DNA of 64,000 bases, taken from positions 32,001 to 96,000 of the IMG/VR virus record IMGVR_UViG_3300021364_003460, one strand, 5' to 3'. The notes beneath the pieces are model-generated. The model worked only from the letters and a program-made list of their open reading frames with translations. It searched no databases and had not been told where the DNA came from. Every line of letters begins with the position of its first letter. Within the stretch, counting starts at the first letter, position 1. The DNA comes from a virus. The position numbers and the translations under genes were made by a program. Of this stretch, positions 7,200 to 60,178 are shown one piece after another.

Positions 7200-7427
7200 C
7201 TTTGTTGTACTAATAAAAAATTCCCATATTGGGACTTTTCTAACTATGCTCCTACAGCAGATAATAAGTTTATTAGCCTCTATTGCTAAGAAGATACAGG
7301 TACTATAGATATTAGTTTACTAGATAATAATATGACTAATATATCAACAGTCTTAGAAGTAGGTGATCGCTCACAGATAACTACAGTGCTAGATATACTA
7401 CTGTTTGCTATAGAAAAAGATGAATAA
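7200..7427 (+). pseudogene. disrupted hypothetical gene
   Basis: Frame LCCTNKKFPYWDF...SLYC*EDTGTID...FAIEKDE* with TAA 7287-7289, ending in an overlap with ATG 7420; start not identifiable. Confidence 0.4.
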
Positions 7428-7602
7428 AACTATGTGGGTTGAAGTTAAAAAGCCAACTACTTTAAATAAGTTTACAGAGTTAATACTCTTACAAGAAGAA
7501 ATAGAAAAGTTATTAAAAGAGTATGCTAACTTAAACAAAGAAGATGCAGAATTCAAAGAAGTATACCTTGAATATGGAAGAAAGGATTTAATAAAAACTT
7601 AG
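7420..7602 (+). CDS. hypothetical protein
   Basis: 60-aa ORF. Confidence 0.5.
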   Translation: MNKTMWVEVKKPTTLNKFTELILLQEEIEKLLKEYANLNKEDAEFKEVYLEYGRKDLIKT

Positions 7603-8067
7603 ATGAATACTTTAAACATCATAAACAAAGATATTCTAACTGTAGAGAAAGGTATCATAGTTCAACAAGTTAATGCTATAGGTAAAACTGGAGCTGGGCT
7701 AAGTGGAGCTATTAATACTAAGTATCCTAACGTTAGAGAACTATACTTAAAGATTAAAGAGTTAGATGGATTACAAATGGGAAATGTTATCTGGTCTAAA
7801 CCAACTAAAAACCTTTTCATAGCTTCTATAGTAGGGCAACAAAATGTAGGAACTTACAAAGTGCAAACTAATTTTGATGCCTTAAGAAAAGGATTACAAG
7901 AAGTAGCTAGGATAGTTAAAAATGGACATGAGGTGTTCATCCCTTACTATTTAGGTTCTGGCTTAGGAGGAGGACCAACTCAACAGACTAAACAAGAAAC
8001 ATGGGAGAAGGTAAGTAACATTATTTGGGAAGAAATACCTGATGCAATCATTTGTAGGAAAGTTTAA
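7603..8067 (+). CDS. macro domain protein (Poa1p/TARG1-like ADP-ribose hydrolase)
   Basis: KDIL, IIVQQVNA.G..GAGLSGAI..KYP, T...ALRKGL, IPY.LGSGLGGG..W. Confidence 0.8.
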   Translation: MNTLNIINKDILTVEKGIIVQQVNAIGKTGAGLSGAINTKYPNVRELYLKIKELDGLQMGNVIWSKPTKNLFIASIVGQQNVGTYKVQTNFDALRKGLQEVARIVKNGHEVFIPYYLGSGLGGGPTQQTKQETWEKVSNIIWEEIPDAIICRKV

Positions 8068-8086
8068 AGATTCTCTTTAGAGAAAG

Positions 8087-8106
8087 CTCAGTTAAAGCTG
8101 ACTGAG
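8087..8106 (+). terminator. putative intrinsic terminator
   Basis: CTCAGT/ACTGAG stem followed by TTTATTTT. Confidence 0.45.
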
Positions 8107-8141
8107 TTTATTTTAATAGTTAAAGTTTAGAAAACATAATA

Positions 8142-8789
8142 ATGACTACAGAAGTAAGACTAAAGAAAACTTACAAGTCTGGCAGCAATGGGGATACTGG
8201 AATGAGTTATGTATTACATAACAGACCTCCTATTCTCAAATCTTCTCCTGCTTGTAAAGTTCAAGGTGAAATAGAAAAAGTAAGGCATAACATAGAAGAG
8301 TTACTGTATTCTTGTACTCTAATTCAAGAAGACTTAACTTATGTTCTTACTTGGTTAGATAGAAATCTATTTTCTCTAGCTAGTTTCTGTTATATGAAAG
8401 GAGAAAGTAGCAATCATGTATTACCTACAGAGTTGTTAGATTTCTTAGATAAGAAAACTGCTGAATTGAAAGTAGAAGTAGGTGATTGCCAAGACTTCTT
8501 AAATCAATCTCACATTAATCTGATTAAGTTAGATGGTATTAGAATTGAAGTTAGACAACTAGAGTCAGCTTATGTAGCTTGGTGGCATACTCAAGAAATG
8601 ATATCTTTCCTTATGGATAGAGATGACTTAATTACAGGAGTAAAACATCATGCAGCTATATTAAATAGATTGTCAGCTTACTTGTTTGAAGCTACTAGAA
8701 TGGAAGCTAAACTAATGAATACTAAAGATATTTATGTAGAGCAAAGACCTTGGCAAGCTAACTTAGAATCTTTTAATCCACCTTTATAA
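8142..8789 (+). CDS. pduO: PduO-type cob(I)alamin adenosyltransferase-like protein
   Basis: TYKSGSNGDTG (cf. YTxTGDxG), K.S...K..G.IE, RIEVRQLE (cf. RtvcRRaER), LNRLSAYLF (cf. LNRLSDxLF); directly upstream of nrdJ. Confidence 0.7.
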   Translation: MTTEVRLKKTYKSGSNGDTGMSYVLHNRPPILKSSPACKVQGEIEKVRHNIEELLYSCTLIQEDLTYVLTWLDRNLFSLASFCYMKGESSNHVLPTELLDFLDKKTAELKVEVGDCQDFLNQSHINLIKLDGIRIEVRQLESAYVAWWHTQEMISFLMDRDDLITGVKHHAAILNRLSAYLFEATRMEAKLMNTKDIYVEQRPWQANLESFNPPL

Positions 8790-8828
8790 TAGAATTTATA
8801 TAAACTTACAATTTAATAACAACTAAAC

Positions 8829-11800
8829 ATGCAGACATTACAAGTAAATACTTTTAAAGCTTACTTTGACTTGCTCTCTCCTAAGTATGTAGATTGGGAA
8901 TTTTATAGTAAATATTTAGACAAAGAGCCTCCTTTTGGTGAATTAGGAGTAATAGTATTTTTAAGAACTTACAGTAGATTTATTGAACAATTAGGTAGAA
9001 GAGAATACTGGAGAGAAGTATGTTTAAGAGTCGTTGAGTACAGCCTGTCTTTAGATAAAGTAACTCCAGTTGAATTAAAAAAAGAAGAAGCTAAAAAGTT
9101 ATTTGATATGATGTTTAATCTTAGAGGATTTCCTGCTGGAAGGACTCTATGGATTGGCAACACTAAGATTACTGAAACAAATGGAACAGCAAATTTTAAC
9201 TGTTCTGCTGCTACTACAGATAGTATTTCTAAGTTTGCAGAATGTTTTTATATGTTACTAGTAGGTGCAGGATATGGCTTTAGTGTAGAAGACAAATACA
9301 TTAGTAACCTGCCCACTTTTTATCCTGGTAAAACTTTAGTCAATAAAGAGTATAACTACAACAAATACTTAAAAGTAGATGATACAGAGATTGAGTTTTA
9401 TAAAGATAATAAATTTCTGTCTTCAGTGGTTTATACAGAAAAGTCTTTATGTATAGAAGAAGATAATAAGTATTTATCTGTACCAGAAGACTGCAATAAA
9501 GTTAATATTCTGGTAGGAGACAGCCGTGTTGGTTGGGTTAACACTCTAAGACTTCTACTTACTTTACATACTTATTCAAATATAAAAGTTGTTGAAGTAG
9601 ATTATGATTATGTTAGACCAGAAGGTGCAATCTTAAAAACATTTGGAGGCAGGTCTAGTGGTCACACTGCTCTAGAGACTTTACTAAATAGAGTTGTAGA
9701 AATTATAAATGAGTTATCTAAACCTGGAAAATTAAGTAGCGTTCAATGTTTAGATATTAAAAATTCTATTGGTATAGCTGTAGTAGTTGGTGGAGTACGT
9801 AGGTCAAGTGAGTTAGTATTAGGAGATTTATTTGACACTAATTTTATTAATTCTAAAAAAGACTTGTGGAGTGATGAAAGTTTAGCTAATAAAAGAGCTA
9901 CTAGAGTTATGAGTAATAACTCAGTAACCTTATATGAAAACCCTGGTTTAGAATACTTTAAACAATTAATGGAAAGTGTTAGAACATCAGGTGAACCAGG
10001 AGTATATAGCATAGGTAACGCTCAAAAAAGAGCAGCTAACAGAAAACTTACCAACCCTTGCTTTACTGGTAGTATGAAACTTCTTACTAGTGAAGGTTAT
10101 GTTGAATTTAAAGAACTAGAAGATAAAGAAGTAGAAGTAATTAATAAAGAAGGTAATATTACTAAAAGTAAAGTTTGGTCTTCTGGAATTAAAGAGTGCA
10201 TTGAATTAAGACTTTCTAATAAAGAGACTCTACAATGCACTCCTGATCATATATGGTTAACAAATGAAGGAGAAATACAAGCTAAAGATTTAAAGAATAA
10301 ACAATTAGTACCTTTTCTAAAAGAACCTGATTTAGATATTAATTATACAAGATATGGTTTTATTCAGGGAGATGGCACTTTAAATAGACTTACTTCAGTT
10401 ATACACAAAGGGTTGGAAGTAAACATAGGATATAAAGATGGAGACATTTATTCTTTATTTGAAGGTTTAAATTATACAAATAAGAGTTATAGAGTTATTT
10501 ATTTAAATGACTCTAAAGACCTAGAGGTGATTAAATCTTTAGGATATCAAGCAGTTAAATTACCTCAAAGAACTTTACCAGATAAATATCCATCTTTCTC
10601 TTTCAAAGAGAAAGCTTCCTTTTTAAAAGGTTGCTATTCAGCAAATGGTTCTGTTCTTAGCTGTGGTAGAGTCACTTATAAAGCAACTTGTAAAGAATTA
10701 TTAGAACAAATTCAAGAATCTTTATATTTAGACTTTGGAATTGAATCTTATATAACTACTAATAAGTCTAAAGAAGTGCAGTTTAGTAATGGTGTTTATA
10801 CCTGTAGAGAAAGTTATGATTTAAATGTAAATAAGTTTACTGATAAAGTTAACTTCTTTAATGAAATTGGTTTTGTTCAAAGATATAAAGTTGAATTATT
10901 AGCTAAACACTTATTAAAATCTGCACCTTATATAACTTCTATTAAAAATATTGGTGAACATAAAGTTTATGATTTTACTGAACCTGAAACTCATTGGGGT
11001 GTAGTAAATCGCTTTATAGCTCATAATTGCGGTGAAATCCTCTTAGACGACAGAGGAGTGTGCAACTTAACTGAAGCTAATGTATTAGCTCATGTTAAAG
11101 AAGATAACACTTTTGATTGGGAAGTTTGGAAAGATACTATTACTTGGGTGACTAGAATGGGATCTAGAATAACCTTAGTTGATATGTGGCATCCTAAATG
11201 GCAAGAAACTCAGCAAAGAGATAGGTTACTTGGAGTATCAATGACAGGTATAGTAGAAGCTTTTGATGCTCTTAATTGGTCAGAAGAAGACATTACTTAC
11301 TTTTATAAAAAGACTCAAAGTATTGTTGATCTTGTTGCAGATAACTATCATAACTATCTAGGTATTCCAAAAAGTTTACTTAAAACTACTATCAAACCCA
11401 GTGGTTCATTGTCGCAATTGCCTACAGTTTCATCTGGTATACATAGACCTTATGCGCCTTATTACTTAAGAAGAATTAGAGTTAGTAAAACAGATCCTTT
11501 AGCTAAAACACTATATGATTTAGGATTAATTCCTGTTCCAGAAAACAGTCAAGGTGATGACTTGTTTGGAGAATACTGTAACACTTGGGTATTTACTTTC
11601 CCAGTTAAAACTAAAGCTAAATTAAATTCAATTGATGAACCAGCTTTAGTTCAGTTAGAAAGATATAAACAAGTAATGCAGCATTATGTTCAACACAACT
11701 GTTCTATTACTGTATCTGTTGCTGAACATGAATGGGAAGAAGTAGCTCAATGGTTGTATGAAAATTATGATTACTATATTGGAATAGCATTCTTGCCTAG

Positions 11801-27437: not shown

Positions 27438-28531
27438 TAGATATTTACAGCTTAAATGAGATACCTAAAAAGTTTAATAAACAAGGACTCTGTTATTTTG
27501 GTAAGCTGACTAAAGAAGAGTTGCCTTTAGATTGTGAGCTAGAGTATGTTCCAGGCTATACCAATATATACCTAAACTCATTTGAAGAAGACTTTGTGCA
27601 GTTTGAGTACATGGATGGATTTAGTCCTAACCTTAATAAGAAGCTACACTTAGGTCATCTTAGTAACTTTATCTTTGCTAAAACTTTTCAATCACTGGGA
27701 GTTAGTAAACAAACTATTGCTATCTATGGAGATACCTTAAAAGGAACTGACTACACCAATAAAAATCAGATAATGTTTGACTACAAAGTAGATAAAGAAT
27801 ACTTTGCTAGTCAGATGACACTTAGTGATGACAGTATATTAAGTAATGGTAAGGGTAAGTATGAAGGTGCTAAAGTCTGGCAAGATAATGTAATGATTAA
27901 GTCCAATGGAGGTACTACATACTTCTATCAAGATGTAGCTCTAAGACAGCATCTAAAGTTACCAACTCTATACTTAACTGGACAAGAACAAGTAAATCAC
28001 TTTGCTGAACTTAAAAAGTATGATGGCAATGTTACTCATATAGGATTAGGTTTAGTCAACCTTAATGGCAGCAAGATGAGTTCTAGAGAAGGTAATGTTG
28101 TCTTTATGGAAGAAGTTGTAAGTAAACTAAATGAAGGTTTTAATAACTTAAAGTTAACTTACAATGTGCTGGCTGGTAGTCTTATTAAAAGTAATCCCAC
28201 TACTAATAAGAATATAAACATGACTGACTTAATGGATGTAAAGAAATCATTAGGTCTGTATGTGAGCTATTCACTGGCTAGATTAGATAAGCTACCTATT
28301 GAGTTTGAAAAGGTAGAAATTAGCCCTTTAGTTAAGTATCTGTATGCTAAGTCTAAAATTAAGTTGAATCCTTCTATATTGTTCAATAAGTTAGTAGAGG
28401 TGTGTCAAGCTTTCAATGGAGACTATGAAAGTAAAAGTAGTCAGGAGAATGTTGAGTTGTATTCTCAATATAAGGTAGATGCGGAGTATATGTTTGATAA
28501 GTTAGGGTTGTATAAGGTTGAGAAGGTGTAG
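27434..28531 (+). CDS. argS: compact arginyl-tRNA synthetase-like protein
   Basis: PGYTNIYL, FSPNLNKKLHLGHL (HIGH), KSNGGTTYFYQDVA, YLTG.EQ..HF, KMSSREGNVV, GLYVSYSLARL. Confidence 0.8.
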   Translation: MIDIYSLNEIPKKFNKQGLCYFGKLTKEELPLDCELEYVPGYTNIYLNSFEEDFVQFEYMDGFSPNLNKKLHLGHLSNFIFAKTFQSLGVSKQTIAIYGDTLKGTDYTNKNQIMFDYKVDKEYFASQMTLSDDSILSNGKGKYEGAKVWQDNVMIKSNGGTTYFYQDVALRQHLKLPTLYLTGQEQVNHFAELKKYDGNVTHIGLGLVNLNGSKMSSREGNVVFMEEVVSKLNEGFNNLKLTYNVLAGSLIKSNPTTNKNINMTDLMDVKKSLGLYVSYSLARLDKLPIEFEKVEISPLVKYLYAKSKIKLNPSILFNKLVEVCQAFNGDYESKSSQENVELYSQYKVDAEYMFDKLGLYKVEKV

Positions 28532-28694
28532 ATAGCAAGTATCAAGCTTGTTCAACTTTTCCATTCACCTTTTCAGACTTTTCTTTGAGTCAAATAGGTT
28601 GTAGCCTTTCTATTGAGCAACTAGACAAATAACAAGAGTAAGTTAACCTAAAGATAGTAAGATAAGTAAGACTACTAGAAGTCAACCTAGAATA

Positions 28695-28748
28695 AGACCT
28701 CTAAGTGAGAACCTAAGAGGTCTAAGACTAAGTAGTCTATCTAGATAG
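28695..28748. repeat. cluster of three inverted repeats
   Basis: AGACCTCT(28695-702)/AGAGGTCT(28716-723); AGACTA(28725-30)/TAGTCT(28733-38); palindrome CTATCTAGATAG (28737-48). Confidence 0.75.
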
Positions 28749-28758
28749 CAACCCTAAG

Positions 28759-30234
28759 CTAAGTTATAAGACCTCCCTCTAAGTCTGTAGTTATCCTAAG
28801 TAAGGAAGCTTGCGCCCTAACAGCCTCCTTCATTTTACTCTCTAAAGACTTTACTAAATTACCTTTATTGTAGTGTACTGTAAATCCATCATGCTGAAAG
28901 AGAGTAATAGACATATATTTACTATTCTCTTTAGCTATATCAAAGACTGGCTTAAGTAATACCATCTCCATTAGTTGAGCCTCCTGAGCTAACAAAGACT
29001 TAACACAGTCATGTCTTTCTTTATCAGTATTACCTTCTACTAAAAGTTCTCTACCATCATGCCAGTCTAAAGTTAACTTACCCTCTTCTAAGACTTTAGT
29101 TATCTTAGCTTCTCTGGCTTTATAAAGAGCTGCCATAATGGGACGGGCTAACACATCAGCACCCTTCTTGGCTATCTTTAGTTTCTTAAATCCTTTAGTC
29201 AGTCTAGCTAATAAACATGACTTCTTCATACCATAAATAAGAGAATAAAGACTTTCTTTAAGTAAACCTTTGAGAGCATCAAACCAACCAGGGTTATTTA
29301 ATTTATTGTAAGTATAGTTAATTCCTAAATGAGTAAAGAGGGAAGTCCAGATATGGTTGCCTGATTGTAAGAATTCTTGTACTTCTGTTATGTTCCATAG
29401 TTTAGCTACTATAGCCAACTGACTACTAACTAAATCATACTCATACCAACCCTTACAGATGGCTTTTCTTAGCTTTCTACAAAGAAGTAGTATACTTTCC
29501 CCATGAGGAAATATCCTTACTGTTCTACCAGCACTGCTAGGTTTGTAGTAAGGCTTAGGATTCTCATATATAGATAGAAGTATCTTAGTTTCTATTTCTC
29601 TTAAAGTAGCGTCCTTAGTAGGCTTGAGTTTAGGGTTAGTTTCATTAGACTCTAATCTAGCCAGCACACTAGACACATGGTCAAGGTTTTCTTTAACTTT
29701 GCTAGTAAAAAGATTAGAAGGTAAATTATTTAAGTATTCTAATAAAGGTAGTGCCTCTACAGAAGCATTATCATAGAATCTCTTAACTTCCTCTTCTAAC
29801 TCCTTTCTAATTTCACCAGGAGTATTCTTATTAGCTTTCTTTAAAGTAATAAAGTTGATCATGTTTGTACTGTTACCTATAGGAAAATAACCTAACTCTT
29901 TTTGAATATAATACTGTACTTCTAAAGCAAAGTAAGGAATAGCTGACCTAGCTTTACCTTCTTCATAACTGTACTCTTTAATAGCTAACTTTAAACCTGT
30001 TTCTTCTTGAAATTTAGTTAGATAGTTGCCTGCATTGTAGCGGTGATTTTTAAGTTTCTTATAGCAACCTTCACAACTAGCTAAAGTATGTCTATCTAAA
30101 ACAGTATAGTTTTCTTTGTTCTTACTAAAGATAAGTTTGAGAACTAGCTTTCTGTAACCAGCATTATCTTTAAGAACTGGGTAATGTTCAAGAAGAGAGT
30201 TAGTTAACTCTTGAGATATTAATCTTTTTATCAT
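28759..30234 (-). CDS. minimal family A polymerase-like protein (TV-Pol-like)
   Basis: Minus strand (CAT at 30232-30234; track strand is wrong). Motif A YEYDLVSSQLAI, motif B K...YSLIYG, motif C FQHDGF; no exonuclease domain. Confidence 0.65.
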   Translation of the reverse strand: MIKRLISQELTNSLLEHYPVLKDNAGYRKLVLKLIFSKNKENYTVLDRHTLASCEGCYKKLKNHRYNAGNYLTKFQEETGLKLAIKEYSYEEGKARSAIPYFALEVQYYIQKELGYFPIGNSTNMINFITLKKANKNTPGEIRKELEEEVKRFYDNASVEALPLLEYLNNLPSNLFTSKVKENLDHVSSVLARLESNETNPKLKPTKDATLREIETKILLSIYENPKPYYKPSSAGRTVRIFPHGESILLLCRKLRKAICKGWYEYDLVSSQLAIVAKLWNITEVQEFLQSGNHIWTSLFTHLGINYTYNKLNNPGWFDALKGLLKESLYSLIYGMKKSCLLARLTKGFKKLKIAKKGADVLARPIMAALYKAREAKITKVLEEGKLTLDWHDGRELLVEGNTDKERHDCVKSLLAQEAQLMEMVLLKPVFDIAKENSKYMSITLFQHDGFTVHYNKGNLVKSLESKMKEAVRAQASLLRITTDLEGGLIT

Positions 30235-30361
30235 ATAATTAAAATATATATTGAGATTGGATTGAAATATATAAGTTAGACTTAGTAGTTAAAGAGGGAG
30301 TTATTAGAAGTAGCTGCCTCTATTTTAATGTATACATTTATAGTACCAAAAAGGGCTAGTT

Positions 30362-30511
30362 ATGGCAAGGAGAAAGTGGGTTGAAAAAAGAATTAAAATA
30401 AGCTTTTCACAAACAGAAATAGATAAATTAGAAGCTTATTGTGAAAAGCATGAAAGAGAATATAGTGATGTGATTAGAGAGCTAGTAAGAAATCTAAAAG
30501 TGGAGGATTAA
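30362..30511 (+). CDS. ribbon-helix-helix (CopG-like) DNA-binding protein (49 aa)
   Basis: Own translation RIKISFSQTEIDKLEAYCEKHEREYSDVIRELVRNL; absent from the ORF track. Confidence 0.75.
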   Translation: MARRKWVEKRIKISFSQTEIDKLEAYCEKHEREYSDVIRELVRNLKVED

Positions 30512-36110: not shown

Positions 36111-36118
36111 AATTGAAT

Positions 36119-37582
36119 ATGCTTCAACTTACAGTTGGAAAGGAAGTAGATTACTTTTACATAACTAATGCTTCTGATTTAATAGAGGCAGTTAACAATA
36201 TTGAAAAAGCATTAGAATCTACAGATAAAATACTTGCAGTAGATACAGAAACCTATCCTTTATATAACATTTATGGAGATAGAGCTGATTTTAGAGACCC
36301 ACACACAACAGCTACTAGATTAATACAGGTCAATGTATCTTATAATAATACTCCTTATATCTTTGACTTCTTAAAAATAGGTAGAGAAGGTTTTCAACCT
36401 TTAGTTGATTTATTAATGAGGAAAGATATAAGAAAAGTAGGTCACAATTTTAAGTATGATATTAAGCAACTTAAAGCAAGTTTAAATGTGTGGCTACCTA
36501 ACTCCTGGTGTACTTTGGTGATGGCAGCTAGAGTTAATGTATGTACTGGATTCAGAGCAGGTCAAATGAGAGGTAACTCTTTAAAAGCATTAGCTAGAGA
36601 TTACTTTGGTATTGATTTATCTAAAACAGAACAAAAATCAGACTGGTCTAATCCTAATCTTGCTTCTGAACAGTTAGAATATGCTGCTTTAGATGTTAGT
36701 AAAGGAAAAAGCCATACTCAACTAAAGCATTCTGTACTGCTAGATTTATATTATCTATTTCACAATCTACTTTATACTCCTGCACCTAAAGGTTTTGGAG
36801 GTCACTGTAAACTTAAAGACTTTAAAGAACCTATTGAAGTAGACCAAGCAGCTAACTCTATACTTGCTAAGATTGAGTATAATGGAATGCCAGTATCTAA
36901 GAAGATGCTAGACCTAATTTACTCTACAGCTAGTAAAGAAGTAGAAGAATTAAAGTTGTATCTTTGTAAGAGCTTTGGTTTACCTATTCAACAAGCACTT
37001 GATTATACAGATGAAGGGGCTAAAGTAATCACTATTCTTAGTGAGGAAACTCAAAAGACTCTCAATAATCCTAAGAAACTAGTACAATTAGTTAATAAGA
37101 CTTTGAAGAAACAAGGGATTGAGTTAACTAATGTATTGTCAGATTCACTAGAGGAAGCTTTGAAGAAACTAAAAGCTAAAGAGTCTGAAGAAGAGCCTGA
37201 TGAAGAAGAGGAGTTTTATTGGGAAGATGAGGAGGAAAGCGTAGAGTGGAATATAGATTTAATAGACAAATTAATTAAGTATAAAGAGTTAAGTAAATTA
37301 GTTAGTATTGACTATAGAAAGTTGATTAACCCTGTTACTGGTAGAGTTCATAGTAGTTATCAATGTATTGGTGCTAGTACAGGTAGAATGAGTAGTGGAG
37401 GTAAAGGTAGCTTTAATGTGCAACAGATTTCGAGTAAAACAGTAGTTATAGAAATAGAAGAAACTGATCATCCTTATATCAGTTCTTCTCAAATAAACTT
37501 TACGCAGCTTTCTGACTTAGAAGATAATCTTGAGATTGATAAAACTGTTGAGCTTTGTCATACTTCCTCTGCATATAAATAG
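36119..37582 (+). CDS. polA: DNA polymerase A, N-terminal part (3'-5' exonuclease and thumb)
   Basis: AVDTET, GHNFKYD, YAALDV, IEYNGMPV, TGRVHSSY, TGRMSS..FNVQQI; TTG at 36113 is an alternative start. Confidence 0.92.
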   Translation: MLQLTVGKEVDYFYITNASDLIEAVNNIEKALESTDKILAVDTETYPLYNIYGDRADFRDPHTTATRLIQVNVSYNNTPYIFDFLKIGREGFQPLVDLLMRKDIRKVGHNFKYDIKQLKASLNVWLPNSWCTLVMAARVNVCTGFRAGQMRGNSLKALARDYFGIDLSKTEQKSDWSNPNLASEQLEYAALDVSKGKSHTQLKHSVLLDLYYLFHNLLYTPAPKGFGGHCKLKDFKEPIEVDQAANSILAKIEYNGMPVSKKMLDLIYSTASKEVEELKLYLCKSFGLPIQQALDYTDEGAKVITILSEETQKTLNNPKKLVQLVNKTLKKQGIELTNVLSDSLEEALKKLKAKESEEEPDEEEEFYWEDEEESVEWNIDLIDKLIKYKELSKLVSIDYRKLINPVTGRVHSSYQCIGASTGRMSSGGKGSFNVQQISSKTVVIEIEETDHPYISSSQINFTQLSDLEDNLEIDKTVELCHTSSAYK

Positions 37583-38381
37583 TAGCACCTACATACAAAT
37601 AATCTAAAAGTTTATTTAAATTAAACCTACCACCAAATCTTATATCAGAAGTATACTCATTACCATTTTTATAAGCAACAACTGAAGAAGTTATATTATG
37701 TTTTTCTAATAAGTAATCTTTAAGTTGATTACAAAATAAACTAGAACTAGTGATGCTTACTCCTGTTTTGTTAAGATCAGTTAAATTATTTATTGTTTTA
37801 GGAATAATTATACATCCGTCTCCATCTAAATAACCTCTTACAAAGTGTCTCATTAAATCAGCAGGAACTCCAATTGGCATTTCTAAGATTTTAGATTTTG
37901 CAGGAATACACCCTTTTGCAATAAGAGATTCTACAAAAGGCTTGTTGTATATACTTAATGTAGTAAAAGGGTTGCCGTTCTTTTCTCCATAACCTGCTGT
38001 TTTATAATAGGTTCTTATATCGCAATTAGATTCTAAACAATCTCTTAAATTATACAACAAGTATTCATCAGATTGAGTTAAGGTTATAGCAAACTTATGA
38101 GTATACTTATGTATGCTAGTATTTCCATCTGCAAAAATTAAACCTAAAAAGTAAGCTTTCTCTTCAGAATCTATTACTTCAAAATAAGTGTAGTTTAAAG
38201 TATGCCAACTACTAGCATCCTGATAACCCTTAATCTTAATACCTCTTCTTTTTAATACACCTAATATAGCTTGAGGAGAAACATTATATTCCCTTGACAA
38301 TTCTACAGACCTTTTTCCAGCTAAATAACTATTTACAATATCAATCTTTTGTTGATCATTCAATCTATTAGGTATTCCCAT
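37500..38381 (-). CDS. free-standing LAGLIDADG homing endonuclease with N-terminal HTH, antisense within polA
   Basis: Minus strand (CAT at 38379-38381; track strand is wrong); KAYFLGLIFADG and FVRGYLDGDG. Confidence 0.92.
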   Translation of the reverse strand: MGIPNRLNDQQKIDIVNSYLAGKRSVELSREYNVSPQAILGVLKRRGIKIKGYQDASSWHTLNYTYFEVIDSEEKAYFLGLIFADGNTSIHKYTHKFAITLTQSDEYLLYNLRDCLESNCDIRTYYKTAGYGEKNGNPFTTLSIYNKPFVESLIAKGCIPAKSKILEMPIGVPADLMRHFVRGYLDGDGCIIIPKTINNLTDLNKTGVSITSSSLFCNQLKDYLLEKHNITSSVVAYKNGNEYTSDIRFGGRFNLNKLLDYLYVGATIYMQRKYDKAQQFYQSQDYLLSQKAA

Positions 38382-38447
38382 AGTACATTTAAATTAAACA
38401 TTAAAGTGTACTTTACATAGAACAAAGTAATATTAAATAGGCAATTA

Positions 38448-39461
38448 ATGAAAAAGAAAACAAGAGTAAGTTTAAGACATGCTTTTGTAGCCCCTAAAGG
38501 TATGCTTATTGCTAGTAGCGATTTCTCTGCTCAGGAATTTCGCAATGCAGGGGCATTATCTAAAGATGTAAACATAGCTAAAATTTACAAACTAGAAAAA
38601 GAATATATAGATAAAATAAGACCTAAACCCATTAACCCTTTAACTAATAAATCTTATGATGACCCTGCCTGTGACCCTCATATTCAAGCAGCAGTACCTT
38701 TAGACAATGAAGTTAAAAGAATAGTATTAGAAGAACCTTGGAGAGCTATAAAAGAAGACCTACATGTAGGACCTTGGAGGCAGAAAGGTAAGGTAATGAA
38801 TTACAGACTTATTTACTTATGTTCTGCTATGTCTTTAGCTCCAGAATTAGGAGTAAGTAAAGAAGAAGCTCAAGCTTTTATAGATAAATATTTCTCATAT
38901 CCTGATGGATTCTATGGTTTAGGTGAATATTTAAAATCAACAGCTCTTATAGGTAGTGAAGTTAGATGGGTTAGAACTGCTACAGGAGAACTTATTTTTG
39001 TGAATGAATCAAACAGCAAGGGTTTATCTGACTCAGGTGCAGCAAGTCGTAAAAGTGTAAATAGTCCAAATCAAGGTTTAGGTTCTACTCAAAAAAAGAT
39101 AGCTTTAGCTTTAGCTGATAAAAAGTTTACTAAATTAAATGATAAATATAGAAATGTAATTAGAGGAAGAGAGGGTGTACTAGGAGGAGAGATCCATGAT
39201 GAGTCGTTAGCTTTTATACCAGGAGAATGTTACTTCCACTTAGTACCTGATGAAAAGTTAAATGAAAAATATAATACTGATATCTATGTTAAACCTCAGG
39301 TAGAGTTTGATGAAAATATAGGGGAACATGCTTTAGCTTTAGAATATGGAGCAGCCTTAAAAAGTTCTATGGAAGAAGCAATGCAAGAAACCTTTGATAT
39401 TATAGGAACTGATATTCCTCCAGGAAGTTCAGTAGAAGTAGCTCCTTGGTGGATTCACTAG
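38448..39461 (+). CDS. polA: DNA polymerase A, C-terminal part (palm and fingers)
   Basis: LRHAFVAP, motif A SDFSAQE.R, motif B RQKGKVMNYRLIY, NSPNQG, motif C IHDE. Confidence 0.92.
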   Translation: MKKKTRVSLRHAFVAPKGMLIASSDFSAQEFRNAGALSKDVNIAKIYKLEKEYIDKIRPKPINPLTNKSYDDPACDPHIQAAVPLDNEVKRIVLEEPWRAIKEDLHVGPWRQKGKVMNYRLIYLCSAMSLAPELGVSKEEAQAFIDKYFSYPDGFYGLGEYLKSTALIGSEVRWVRTATGELIFVNESNSKGLSDSGAASRKSVNSPNQGLGSTQKKIALALADKKFTKLNDKYRNVIRGREGVLGGEIHDESLAFIPGECYFHLVPDEKLNEKYNTDIYVKPQVEFDENIGEHALALEYGAALKSSMEEAMQETFDIIGTDIPPGSSVEVAPWWIH

Positions 39462-58900: not shown

Positions 58901-60178
58901 ATGTTATCCCCTCAAGAAAGAAAAGAAAGAATACTAAGTGAAATTAAGATTAGCCAAATAGTTAATGTAAAAGATTATGGGAGTTCTACTTGTCCTTGTT
59001 GTGGTAAGTCTAATAAATTTAGTATTCATAGTAATAGAGGTAAATGCTGGTCTAGCTACTGTGAGTTAAACAAATCATTAGATGTAATTAGTCTTTATCA
59101 ATGGAAGCATAACTTAGCTGATAGATGGGAAGCTACTAAAGCTATAGAACAAGAGTTTAATTTACCTGTAGGTAGTAATAAACCTAATGAGAGAAGTCAA
59201 TTATTAGAGCAATGTTTAATTATCTACCAAAAGTATTTATGGTCTAATCAGCAAGCATTAGATTACTTAAGGAATAGAGGCTTTTTAGAAGAAACTATTA
59301 GAGAACTAGGTTTAGGTTATGCACCTGATTTTAGCTGCCTTACTAAACAGGGTATTAAAACTACTGACTTACAAAGAGAAGGATTATATAAAGAAGGTAA
59401 AGAATACTACTCTAAAAGAATCATCTTTCCTATTAGAAATAAATTTGGGCATTTAGTTCACTTTCAAGGCAGATATATATTGCCTATAGCTAAAGATGAT
59501 AAAGGTGAAGATACTATTCCTAAATATAAAGATAGTAGACCTGCTAACAATAAAACTACTAAAGACTTTCTCTATTTAGAAGAACATATAGAAAAATATC
59601 TTAAGTCTAGTAATATGTTATATGTAGCTGAAGGTTGTCCTGATACTATCTCTTTATGGCAGAAAGGATTACCTGTGGTTGGTTCACTAGGTTTAGAGAA
59701 ATTAACTAGTCACATTAATAAACTAAAGAAGTTTGATTACATAGTTTTTATGTTTGACAATGATACTTACCCTTCTCACCATCCTAAATATTCTTTAGAA
59801 TATAAAAGCTGGGTTAGAGTTATACCTCAACTAATAGACTTACAAATAGCTTTACCTACTACTAACTTTTATACTTGCTTAGTTCCTCATCATACTATCC
59901 ATAAACAAAATAAGTATGCTGTTGAGACTAAGGATATTAATGAGTGGTTAACAATAGGACAGCTAACTAAAGATGAAGTAGAAAAGTACATTAATTCTAA
60001 GAAAAAAGAGTTTGTTAGTTCTCTAGTTGAACAAGAAGGTAGTAACATTAGCTATCACTTTAACTTACTTAAACTTATTCAGGTTACTGGTAAACACTAT
60101 CTTAAAGAAGAGCTATTTAGATTCCTACCTCCAATGAAGTCTCCTATAGATTATGCTTGTGAAGTGTTGGCTGCTTAA
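58901..60178 (+). CDS. dnaG: DnaG-type primase
   Basis: Zn finger CPCC...C..C, YL.NRG, LGYAP, RIIFPI, FQGR, KY, EG..D, FDND, KDINE. Confidence 0.92.
   Translation: MLSPQERKERILSEIKISQIVNVKDYGSSTCPCCGKSNKFSIHSNRGKCWSSYCELNKSLDVISLYQWKHNLADRWEATKAIEQEFNLPVGSNKPNERSQLLEQCLIIYQKYLWSNQQALDYLRNRGFLEETIRELGLGYAPDFSCLTKQGIKTTDLQREGLYKEGKEYYSKRIIFPIRNKFGHLVHFQGRYILPIAKDDKGEDTIPKYKDSRPANNKTTKDFLYLEEHIEKYLKSSNMLYVAEGCPDTISLWQKGLPVVGSLGLEKLTSHINKLKKFDYIVFMFDNDTYPSHHPKYSLEYKSWVRVIPQLIDLQIALPTTNFYTCLVPHHTIHKQNKYAVETKDINEWLTIGQLTKDEVEKYINSKKKEFVSSLVEQEGSNISYHFNLLKLIQVTGKHYLKEELFRFLPPMKSPIDYACEVLAA

Follow-up and report, generated by a model that had tools for sequence, protein, structure and literature searches.

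A TV-Pol-like family A polymerase cassette with a divergent ribbon-helix-helix-like gene and conserved non-coding flanks in a large phage genome

The locus and its genes

The window analysed here, a stretch of 64,000 nucleotides comprising bases 32001-96000 of the 190,865-bp IMG/VR record IMGVR_UViG_3300021364_003460, carries on its minus strand a gene for a 491-amino-acid (aa) protein that resembles a minimal family A DNA polymerase. The gene has non-coding DNA on either side and is accompanied by a small, divergently encoded protein, putatively of the ribbon-helix-helix (RHH) kind, and these features together form the cassette that is the subject of this study (Table 1). GC content of the window is ~31% and the + strand carries nearly all of its genes; the polymerase open reading frame (ORF) is one of the few antisense genes and the only long minus-strand ORF of its stretch. 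It converges with an arginyl-tRNA synthetase (ArgRS)-like gene and diverges from the RHH gene, beyond which lie a 76-aa ORF and a cysteinyl-tRNA synthetase (CysRS)-like gene. An initial annotation, made from the letters of the DNA, had singled out this ORF for its palm motifs A, B and C, and all three proved to be present and conserved.

Table 1. Features of the cassette and of other loci in the window (window coordinates; "." in the strand column as reported)
Feature	Position	Strand	Basis or remark
Minimal family A polymerase-like gene, 491 aa	28759-30234	-	ORF, ATG start, AlphaFold2 fold
Winged-helix-like N-domain, residues 1-140	29815-30234	-	predicted structure
Thumb, palm, fingers, residues ~143-491	28762-29808	-	predicted structure
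Non-coding spacer, 227 bp	28532-28758	.	between convergent genes; repeats, hairpin, box
Unstructured conserved box, ~80 nt	28550-28629	-	aligned in window, L012, L011, L002, L110
TAAG cluster, 15 TAAG (8 CTAAG)	28639-28804	+	extends into last 15 polymerase codons
Extended hairpin	28664-28742	-	core arms 28695-28702/28716-28723, then TTATTCT on gene strand
Control region, 127 bp	30235-30361	.	between divergent genes; promoter-like site and stem-loop
Sigma-70-like polymerase promoter, TTGGTA-16 nt-TAAAAT	30322-30349	-	consensus scan, 9/12 positions
Stem-loop/palindrome directly past the -10 box	30293-30321	-	RNAalifold covariation
Promoter-like match toward RHH gene, TTGAGA-17 nt-TATAAT	30211-30239	+	consensus match only, 11/12 positions
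RHH-like regulator gene, 49 aa	30362-30511	+	weak RHH family matches, conserved beside polymerase
ArgRS-like gene, 365 aa	27434-28531		tRNA-synt_1d E 4.5e-5, slightly under cut-off
CysRS catalytic-domain gene, 366 aa	30741-31841
Canonical PolA, split into two ORFs	36113-39461		PF00476 matches both halves
Toprim_2 (primase-like) match, 425-aa ORF	58901-60178		sole such match in genome

A minimal family A polymerase

Motif A places D267 within DLVSSQLAI, motif B comprises K322, K326, Y330 and G335 within LKGLLKESLYSLIYGM, and motif C is H448-D449-G450. Across alignments of 29 and 91 relatives, R240, D267, K322, K326, G335, D449 and G450 are invariant, and conservation reaches at least 90% for Q272, A274, Y330 and Q420; the predicted secondary structure puts R240 in a beta-hairpin and D267 and D449 at strand ends. 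An AlphaFold2 model built from the 29 relatives reached a mean predicted local distance difference test (pLDDT) score of 91 and a predicted template modelling score of 0.86, and its best Foldseek matches were Klenow, KlenTaq, M. smegmatis Pol1 and Pol theta (E ~1e-8, probability 1.0). By VIA-align, residues 145-491 of the model superimpose on Bst Pol I with a Z score of 17.7 and a root-mean-square deviation of 4.0 over 301 aligned residues, and the other structural matches of residues 143-491 include Pol theta and T7 DNA polymerase (Z range 14-17.7). The polymerase part occupies ~350 residues and an exonuclease domain is absent. The PolA-like palm fold anticipated by the initial annotation was thus recovered in the model, complete with fingers and thumb.

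The protein shares its thumb-palm-fingers fold and the colinear order of motifs A, B and C with the classical family A enzymes (Klenow/Bst/Taq, T7, Pol theta). It differs from them in that their polymerase domain is larger (~420+ residues), in that it possesses neither a 3'-5' nor a 5'-3' exonuclease, and in that motif C reads HDG where theirs reads HDE. Residues were mapped to Klenow by pattern rather than by residue-level structural alignment; on this mapping R240, D267, K322, K326, G335 and D449 would correspond to Klenow R668, D705, R754, K758, G767 and D882, respectively, E883 would be replaced by glycine, and the position of the steric-gate glutamate E710 would hold no carboxylate, being taken by A274 or Q272 depending on the register of motif A. 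The E710A variant of Klenow accepts ribonucleotides (Astatke et al., 1998, as summarised in PMC10201439), and since an acidic residue appears to be missing from the equivalent position, relaxed sugar selectivity is conceivable and the 491-aa enzyme may possibly use ribonucleotides.

Sequence searches with the protein gave nothing usable in Pfam, PHROGs, NCBIfam, PADLOC or PDB sequences, nor by tblastn against GenBank phages. PF00476 matches neither the protein nor any of the 29 relatives, and across the whole genome it finds only the split PolA; a profile comparison of the 491-aa family with this phage's own PolA likewise returned nothing. An exhaustive search, on the other hand, yielded matches to the representatives of 1053 clusters, formed at 50% identity, at E <= 0.001, and 167 of these reached E <= 1e-30. 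Family members that bear a name are "hypothetical proteins" of Nostoc and Nodularia, and the nearest ESM Atlas clusters are unnamed and mostly phage and bacterial; a single-protein scan of genome contigs returned one locus. We consider the protein almost certainly a real, exonuclease-less family A polymerase, by its features one of the TV-Pol kind, and probably active.

The N-terminal 140 residues, modelled separately (pLDDT 84), match winged-helix DNA-binding domains only, none of them an exonuclease and all at Z <=5.7. These matches include OmpR/PhoB effectors, LexA, MarR, ORC and DnaD, and also the iteron-binding initiators Pi, RepE and RepA (Z 4.1-4.8). The predicted structure therefore suggests a winged-helix-like, putatively DNA-binding domain.

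A role in genome maintenance has to be weighed at this point, namely that the protein is an accessory repair or damage-tolerance polymerase that fills gaps, bypasses lesions or joins ends, its flanks being simply promoter, leader and terminator. The best structural matches of the protein include Pol theta and Pol nu, a proofreading domain is lacking, and a RecA-like gene lies within a few kb of the polymerase gene in the window, in the related locus L011 and in the P0014 contigs. The similarity to Pol theta, however, does not exceed that to Pol I or T7 polymerase, and a repair function leaves the winged-helix-like N-domain unexplained.

The RHH-like gene and the control region

The divergent 49-aa ORF that the initial annotation had proposed as an RHH gene is confirmed and recurs beside the polymerase in relatives; its family scores remain below cut-off, and the RHH assignment is tentative. 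It matches ParG at E 0.009, RHH_1 at E 0.033 (14.6 bits vs the 20.5-bit cut-off) and phrog_876, "transcriptional repressor", at E 1e-4; ParG is also the best match in a PDB profile search (E 0.054), and homologues of the gene match RHH_1 at E 0.002-0.003. Homologues 47-76% identical occupy the same divergent position in L012, L109 and L111, tblastx reveals one in L011 too, and they are conserved better than the polymerase itself. In L006 an RHH gene lies upstream of the polymerase in the same orientation. The RHH gene is found next to the polymerase in three arrangements, which argues that the regulator belongs to the module.

Between the two genes, a promoter-like block, GGTA...ATTAAAAT, can be aligned in eight loci, and both hexamer regions of the putative polymerase promoter are conserved in relatives, also where the genomic context differs. 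In the stem-loop that follows, RNAalifold on the eight loci found eight pairs, five of them with compensatory changes; the individual folds range from -5 to -15.5 kcal/mol, and the arms vary between loci yet remain complementary. The element could be an operator, or else the hairpin of a 5' leader in the polymerase mRNA. The promoter-like match directed toward the RHH gene overlaps the polymerase start codon, and its -10 box is complementary to the conserved ATTATATG found there; if this match is real, the polymerase and RHH transcripts would overlap head-on.

The non-coding DNA 3' of the polymerase gene

The stretch beyond the polymerase stop codon had been described as rich in CTAAG and TAAG units, and it turned out to be the densest such cluster of the genome, confined to one strand. 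Within the spacer TAAG occurs ten times, always on the + strand, and its complement not at all. The densest 230-bp windows, which reach into the 3' end of the ORF, contain 15 TAAG and 8 CTAAG, against genome means of 1.64 and 0.32 and runners-up with 8 and 4, respectively; no higher densities occur in all 190,865 bp. The units are short (4-5 nt) and irregularly spaced. An excess of CTTA on the gene strand is seen also in L012 (15 vs 4), L011 (14 vs 3) and L108 (18 vs 7), and the spacer can be aligned with the 3' flanks of relatives. Apart from chance frames, no ORF of at least 30 aa lies wholly inside the spacer, and nothing of relevance emerged from scans of the region for Rfam families, tRNAs and tandem repeats.

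Three adjacent inverted repeats had been claimed here, of which one is a solid extended hairpin. Its core arms are AGACCTCT and AGAGGTCT and its outer arms lie at 28669-28676 and 28731-28738; the minimum free energy is -25.6 kcal/mol (z -1.99), with 9 of 200 shuffled sequences folding as well. The remaining two are weak, one being a GTTAAC palindrome and the other a pair of 15-nt arms with 80% complementarity around a 37-nt loop. The conservation expected of the hairpin holds for the window, L012, L011 and L108, where the arms are invariant and the loops variable, and fails for L002 and L110. The sequence marks it as a candidate terminator or protein-binding palindrome. A terminator is what the repair explanation would call for, and a hairpin with a T-rich tail suits one; that explanation nevertheless accounts neither for the genome-unique repeat cluster nor for the ~80-nt unstructured box past the terminator, which is kept in two phage lineages.

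The consensus of this box is TCTAGT..C.CAA....AAAGGCT.AAACC....AAGGAAAAGT..AAAA....TTGAAC. A structured RNA was considered and dropped when RNAalifold gave no pairs, as was a small ORF: a 13-codon frame, read by eye, occurs only in L002 and L110 and is absent from the lineage of the window. As a separate observation, most of the spacer is enclosed by a perfect 10-nt direct repeat, TAGATAGCAA, at 28529-28538 and 28742-28751, one copy overlapping the stop codon of the ArgRS-like gene and the other lying 8 nt from that of the polymerase. The repeat may be due to chance, with an estimated expectation of roughly 0.05-0.1.

The cassette in related genomes

The cassette is syntenic with that of L012 (polymerase 83% identical) and L011 (82%), as judged by tblastx, and with that of the P0014 contigs (53%), as judged by gene order. 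L108, L109 and L111 (55-66% identity) have the same layout, with an antisense polymerase, a divergent small gene upstream and 300-600 nt without genes downstream, and the genes around the cassette vary between relatives. A 76%-identical polymerase is encoded in a different jumbo-phage backbone (the L002 type, on contigs of up to ~300 kb), where it lies between tail-fibre-like genes, is co-oriented with them and lacks the RHH gene; in a tblastx comparison of L002 with the genome of the window, the polymerase gene is essentially all that the two have in common. In L002 and L110, too, the gene has kept its promoter, the covarying hairpin on the 5' side and the 3' box, despite the unrelated backbone. 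A search for an empty site found none, all sampled L002-type relatives carrying the gene at the same place.

More distant relatives in bacteria are found in the company of mobile-element genes. In Nodularia chucula (L008, NZ_CAWUOL010000150.1, 7170 bp) the gene for a KilAC protein is followed by that for the polymerase, by ~600 nt devoid of genes and by an integrase-like gene; the integrase-like product (502 aa) has an HxLRH-type motif and no Pfam match, and the contig also encodes a collagen-repeat protein. Directly past its polymerase stop are three 27-nt direct repeats spaced 26-27 nt apart, and direct repeats of differing sequence are found at the same place in Nostoc and in L108. The contig is labelled with a coverage of 282 and may be a multicopy or excised element; an 18-nt stretch around the start codon is duplicated 80 nt upstream. 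The Nostoc locus L112 has the gene order RHH_1, pRha/ANT antirepressor-like protein, polymerase; Phage_integrase genes lie near the polymerase in L021 and L014, and an ISL3-like transposase gene in L018. In place of the spacer, some relatives have a small ORF fused to the polymerase stop, of 121 aa in L006 and L013, 89 aa in L016 and L022 and 65 aa in L026. None of these ORFs matches a known family; the two 121-aa ORFs (L006:6461-6826 and L013:4427-4792) are 42% identical to each other, and their product is a candidate partner protein. Finally, another phage (L113) carries at 7298-9461 an antisense two-gene cassette of a 34%-identical polymerase and an overlapping 239-aa gene of no known family, 0.9 kb from Pnkp-Hen1; the genome of the window has Hen1-Pnkp genes too, and the cassette there is at another position. 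The recurrent company of RHH, KilAC and integrase genes is a further point that a repair polymerase would leave unexplained. Although the gene seems dispensable in L011 (see below), as an accessory enzyme might be, we regard a repair function as rather unlikely.

The initial annotation had also considered an embedded mobile element. Recent embedding is weakened by the shared syntenic site in relatives with 53-83% identical polymerases, together with what the window itself contains: there is no recombinase in it, and a search around the cassette for terminal repeats and target duplications gave only short matches at chance level. An older, selfish origin is a different matter. The cassette could be the recombinase-less remnant of a small integrative element, passive or self-propagating, with no role in phage replication. 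It is antisense with a promoter of its own in all phage contexts but one and lies in a region rich in variable accessory and homing-endonuclease-like genes; complete-looking, integrase-bearing elements exist in cyanobacterial and other bacterial contigs, the same cassette occurs in an unrelated jumbo-phage backbone, and one relative has a nonsense mutation. On the other side, the cassette keeps its syntenic position and its catalytic residues intact at 53-55% polymerase identity, which argues for long retention under selection, all sampled contigs of the second lineage keep it, and the window shows no recombinase, terminal repeat or target duplication. We find cargo without benefit to the phage doubtful; as the question it raises is one of benefit and not of biochemistry, it overlaps with the reading that we favour below.

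Relation to known systems

A TV-Pol element has been reported in the Microcystis phage Ma-LMM01, and the genomic contexts of TV-Pols have been described (Iyer et al., 2008; PMC2579912). We presume that MAP_030 of Ma-LMM01, a 506-aa hypothetical gene adjoining two transposase genes, is this published TV-Pol. Our family profile meets MAP_030 at E 0.028 with a colinear arginine hairpin, motif A, motif B and an identical QHDG. Shared with TV-Pols are the minimal superfamily A core with coiled-coil thumb, beta-hairpin arginine and two catalytic aspartates, the lack of a nuclease domain, a basic xxxK motif in the fingers, an extra N-terminal domain in some members and the QHDG form of motif C as found in MAP_030. 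Family-wide, both occur in phages and integrative elements with Bro/KilA-type proteins, integrases and transposases, the KilAC and ANT proteins of L008 and L112 being examples. There are differences: the match to the Ma-LMM01 family covers motif B to motif C only, the fingers read KxxxK in the family of the window and RxxxK in the other, the window contains no D5-like helicase, recombinase, integrase or transposase, and TV-PolN is predicted to be all-helical whereas the N-domain described here has a beta-hairpin wing. The likeness to TV-Pol seen by the initial annotation is upheld in part, by protein features and by the genomic contexts of the family, while direct sequence similarity is weak.

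A second point of comparison is CCPol-MP from SCCmec (staphylococcal cassette chromosome mec), in which an A-family polymerase primes DNA synthesis and can also copy RNA templates (PMC7581432). The putative origin, which contains iterons and inverted repeats, is located immediately downstream of the operon and is a preferred priming site (PMC7581432; PMC10061031). Like the CCPol-MP-Cch2 system, the present cassette combines an A-family polymerase lacking a working exonuclease with repeat-bearing non-coding DNA directly downstream, and in both cases the setting is that of mobile elements. In contrast, CCPol is recognisable kin of classical PolA (CHEAP cluster, PMC10201439) and keeps three exonuclease helices, and it is the window cassette that has a winged-helix-like N-domain and an RHH regulator. 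A resemblance of the SCCmec iteron/priming consensus ACCACTTA to the ACTTA units of our spacer was taken as coincidence.

The copying of RNA templates by CCPol-MP (PMC7581432) brings up an enzyme of a conflict system, which would make a non-genomic product, RNA or DNA, from its own conserved 3' region for defence, counter-defence or superinfection exclusion, the RHH protein acting as a switch. Many phage accessory systems are, like this cassette, regulated antisense units with a small repressor; conserved non-coding DNA goes with the gene, the steric-gate position is predicted to lack glutamate, and the distant homologue cassette of L113 adjoins Hen1-Pnkp RNA repair genes. These are matters of context, however, no PADLOC model matches the protein of the window, the 3' box has neither conserved RNA structure nor an Rfam match, and no effector gene is linked to the cassette. 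We consider such a function very unlikely.

Iteron plasmid replicons (RepE, Pi, RepA; CopG-type RHH proteins) also have a small RHH regulator, a winged-helix-like domain and adjoining repeat-rich DNA. As at iteron-type origins, clustered direct repeats adjoin the candidate initiator gene, in the form of the TAAG/CTAAG units of the spacer and of the repeats in L008, L112 and L108. The resemblance has limits: the N-domain matches these initiators no better (Z 4.1-4.8) than it does other winged-helix proteins, and the iteron initiators have no polymerase domain and recruit host helicase and primase instead.

Proposed function

We propose that the cassette is a module built around a primase-polymerase of the TV-Pol type, which has its start site linked in cis and the RHH protein as its repressor; to this reading, which is to be taken as tentative, we assign a probability of roughly 40%. 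The cassette is best explained as one of the kind carried by integrative mobile elements that is now a stable fixture of a large-cyanophage lineage. Its likeness to a replication module derives from the integrase, KilAC and RHH company in bacteria, the winged-helix-like head of the protein and the repeat-bearing DNA behind the gene. In such a module host RNA polymerase would transcribe the polymerase gene from its own conserved promoter, while the divergently encoded RHH protein would repress the control region. The N-domain would place the polymerase on the conserved DNA 3' of its own gene, that is, on the box, the palindrome and the CTTA/TAAG repeats, and there the enzyme would start DNA synthesis, either de novo or from a nick, as a primase-polymerase, and pass its product to the PolA replisome of the phage.

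A bolder version of this proposal is that the 491-aa protein is an origin-specific initiator in a single polypeptide, whose winged-helix head reads the DNA 3' of the gene and whose PolA-type body starts synthesis without a separate primase, helicase or OB-fold (oligonucleotide/oligosaccharide-binding fold) partner, possibly with ribonucleotides. We hold both parts to be true together only with considerable doubt. Family A polymerases are normally primer-dependent. To our knowledge the only tested exception is CCPol-MP, which needs its partner protein.

Several observations weigh against a replication module, and they concern the protein, its relatives and the presumed start site alike. Compared by hhalign with a seven-sequence MAP_030 family profile, our family scores weakly (E 0.0017, probability 15%, 105 columns), and a six-frame hidden Markov model search of the Ma-LMM01 genome found nothing. 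CCPol alone does not prime, requiring the small OB-fold protein MP and working with a helicase (PMC7581432), and the window cassette has neither an adjoining helicase nor a spacer ORF for such a partner. The matches of the N-domain lie under the Z level for safe fold assignment. In L011 the gene, otherwise intact, is interrupted before motif C by a single in-frame stop at codon 413 (L011:7237-7239), the result of a recent nonsense mutation or else of faulty assembly, which implies that the gene can be lost. The hairpin arms do not covary among the window, L012, L011 and L108, shuffled sequences fold as well as the whole spacer (z +0.47 and -0.55), and the hairpin, which precedes TTATTCT and lies between convergent genes, could just as well be a terminator for the polymerase gene. 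L002 and L110 have neither the hairpin nor the CTTA cluster but a C/T-rich tract, and the distribution of the two elements does not follow the N-domain, which is 64% identical to that of the window in L002, without both elements, and 46% in L108, with both; L109 and L111 have little of the 3' spacer in common with the window. GC skew, lastly, which had been suggested as a check, tracks gene orientation and is uninformative, and an origin signature was not seen.

The existence of TV-Pols has been recognised, through sequence analysis, since 2008, and a characterisation of one distant cousin is available. What appears to be new is the combination of a minimal PolA core with a DNA-binding-like domain and defined cis elements, which does not yet amount to a new principle. 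It nevertheless makes the proposed primase-polymerase role of TV-Pol-like enzymes testable on defined DNA substrates, and it draws attention to a large family (~1050 clusters) that is invisible to Pfam, PHROGs, NCBIfam and PADLOC. If the proposed function is correct, the retention of a second, separately regulated polymerase by large cyanophages that have a full replisome would be accounted for; if the single-polypeptide initiator is real, it would represent a new class of PolA-fold initiator, with more than 1000 uncharacterised clusters in phages and mobile elements. The enzyme, predicted to be small, exonuclease-less and perhaps ribonucleotide-tolerant, may also prove useful in its own right.

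Genomic setting and neighbouring genes

The record is complete according to CheckV and is classed as a provirus by IMG/VR; no terminal repeat was found in it. The longest contig carrying the polymerase protein measures 221,872 bp, ~31 kb more than the record, and host flanks may exist. The RecA-like protein of the phage is at most 35% identical to any GenBank phage match, which indicates that the phage has no close cultured relative.

Family scans of the window found no helicase, partition or plasmid-replication gene adjoining the cassette; the plasmid-state replicon that the initial annotation had entertained stays hypothetical. DnaB_C had no match anywhere in the record in a profile search. 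The presence of a second polymerase besides PolA and a primase, which the initial annotation had thought in need of explanation, is real, the split PolA (PF00476) and the Toprim primase-like gene both having been found.

The tRNA synthetase-like genes that flank the cassette are variable cargo: the syntenic L011 lacks both of them, and L012 has the CysRS-like one. Scans of viral contigs with these two neighbours returned nothing, or distant host-like synthetases only. The canonical PolA is free of inteins and endonuclease-split, an antisense ORF at 37500-38381 separating its halves, and in the relative L011 a LAGLIDADG-like gene adjoins PolA.

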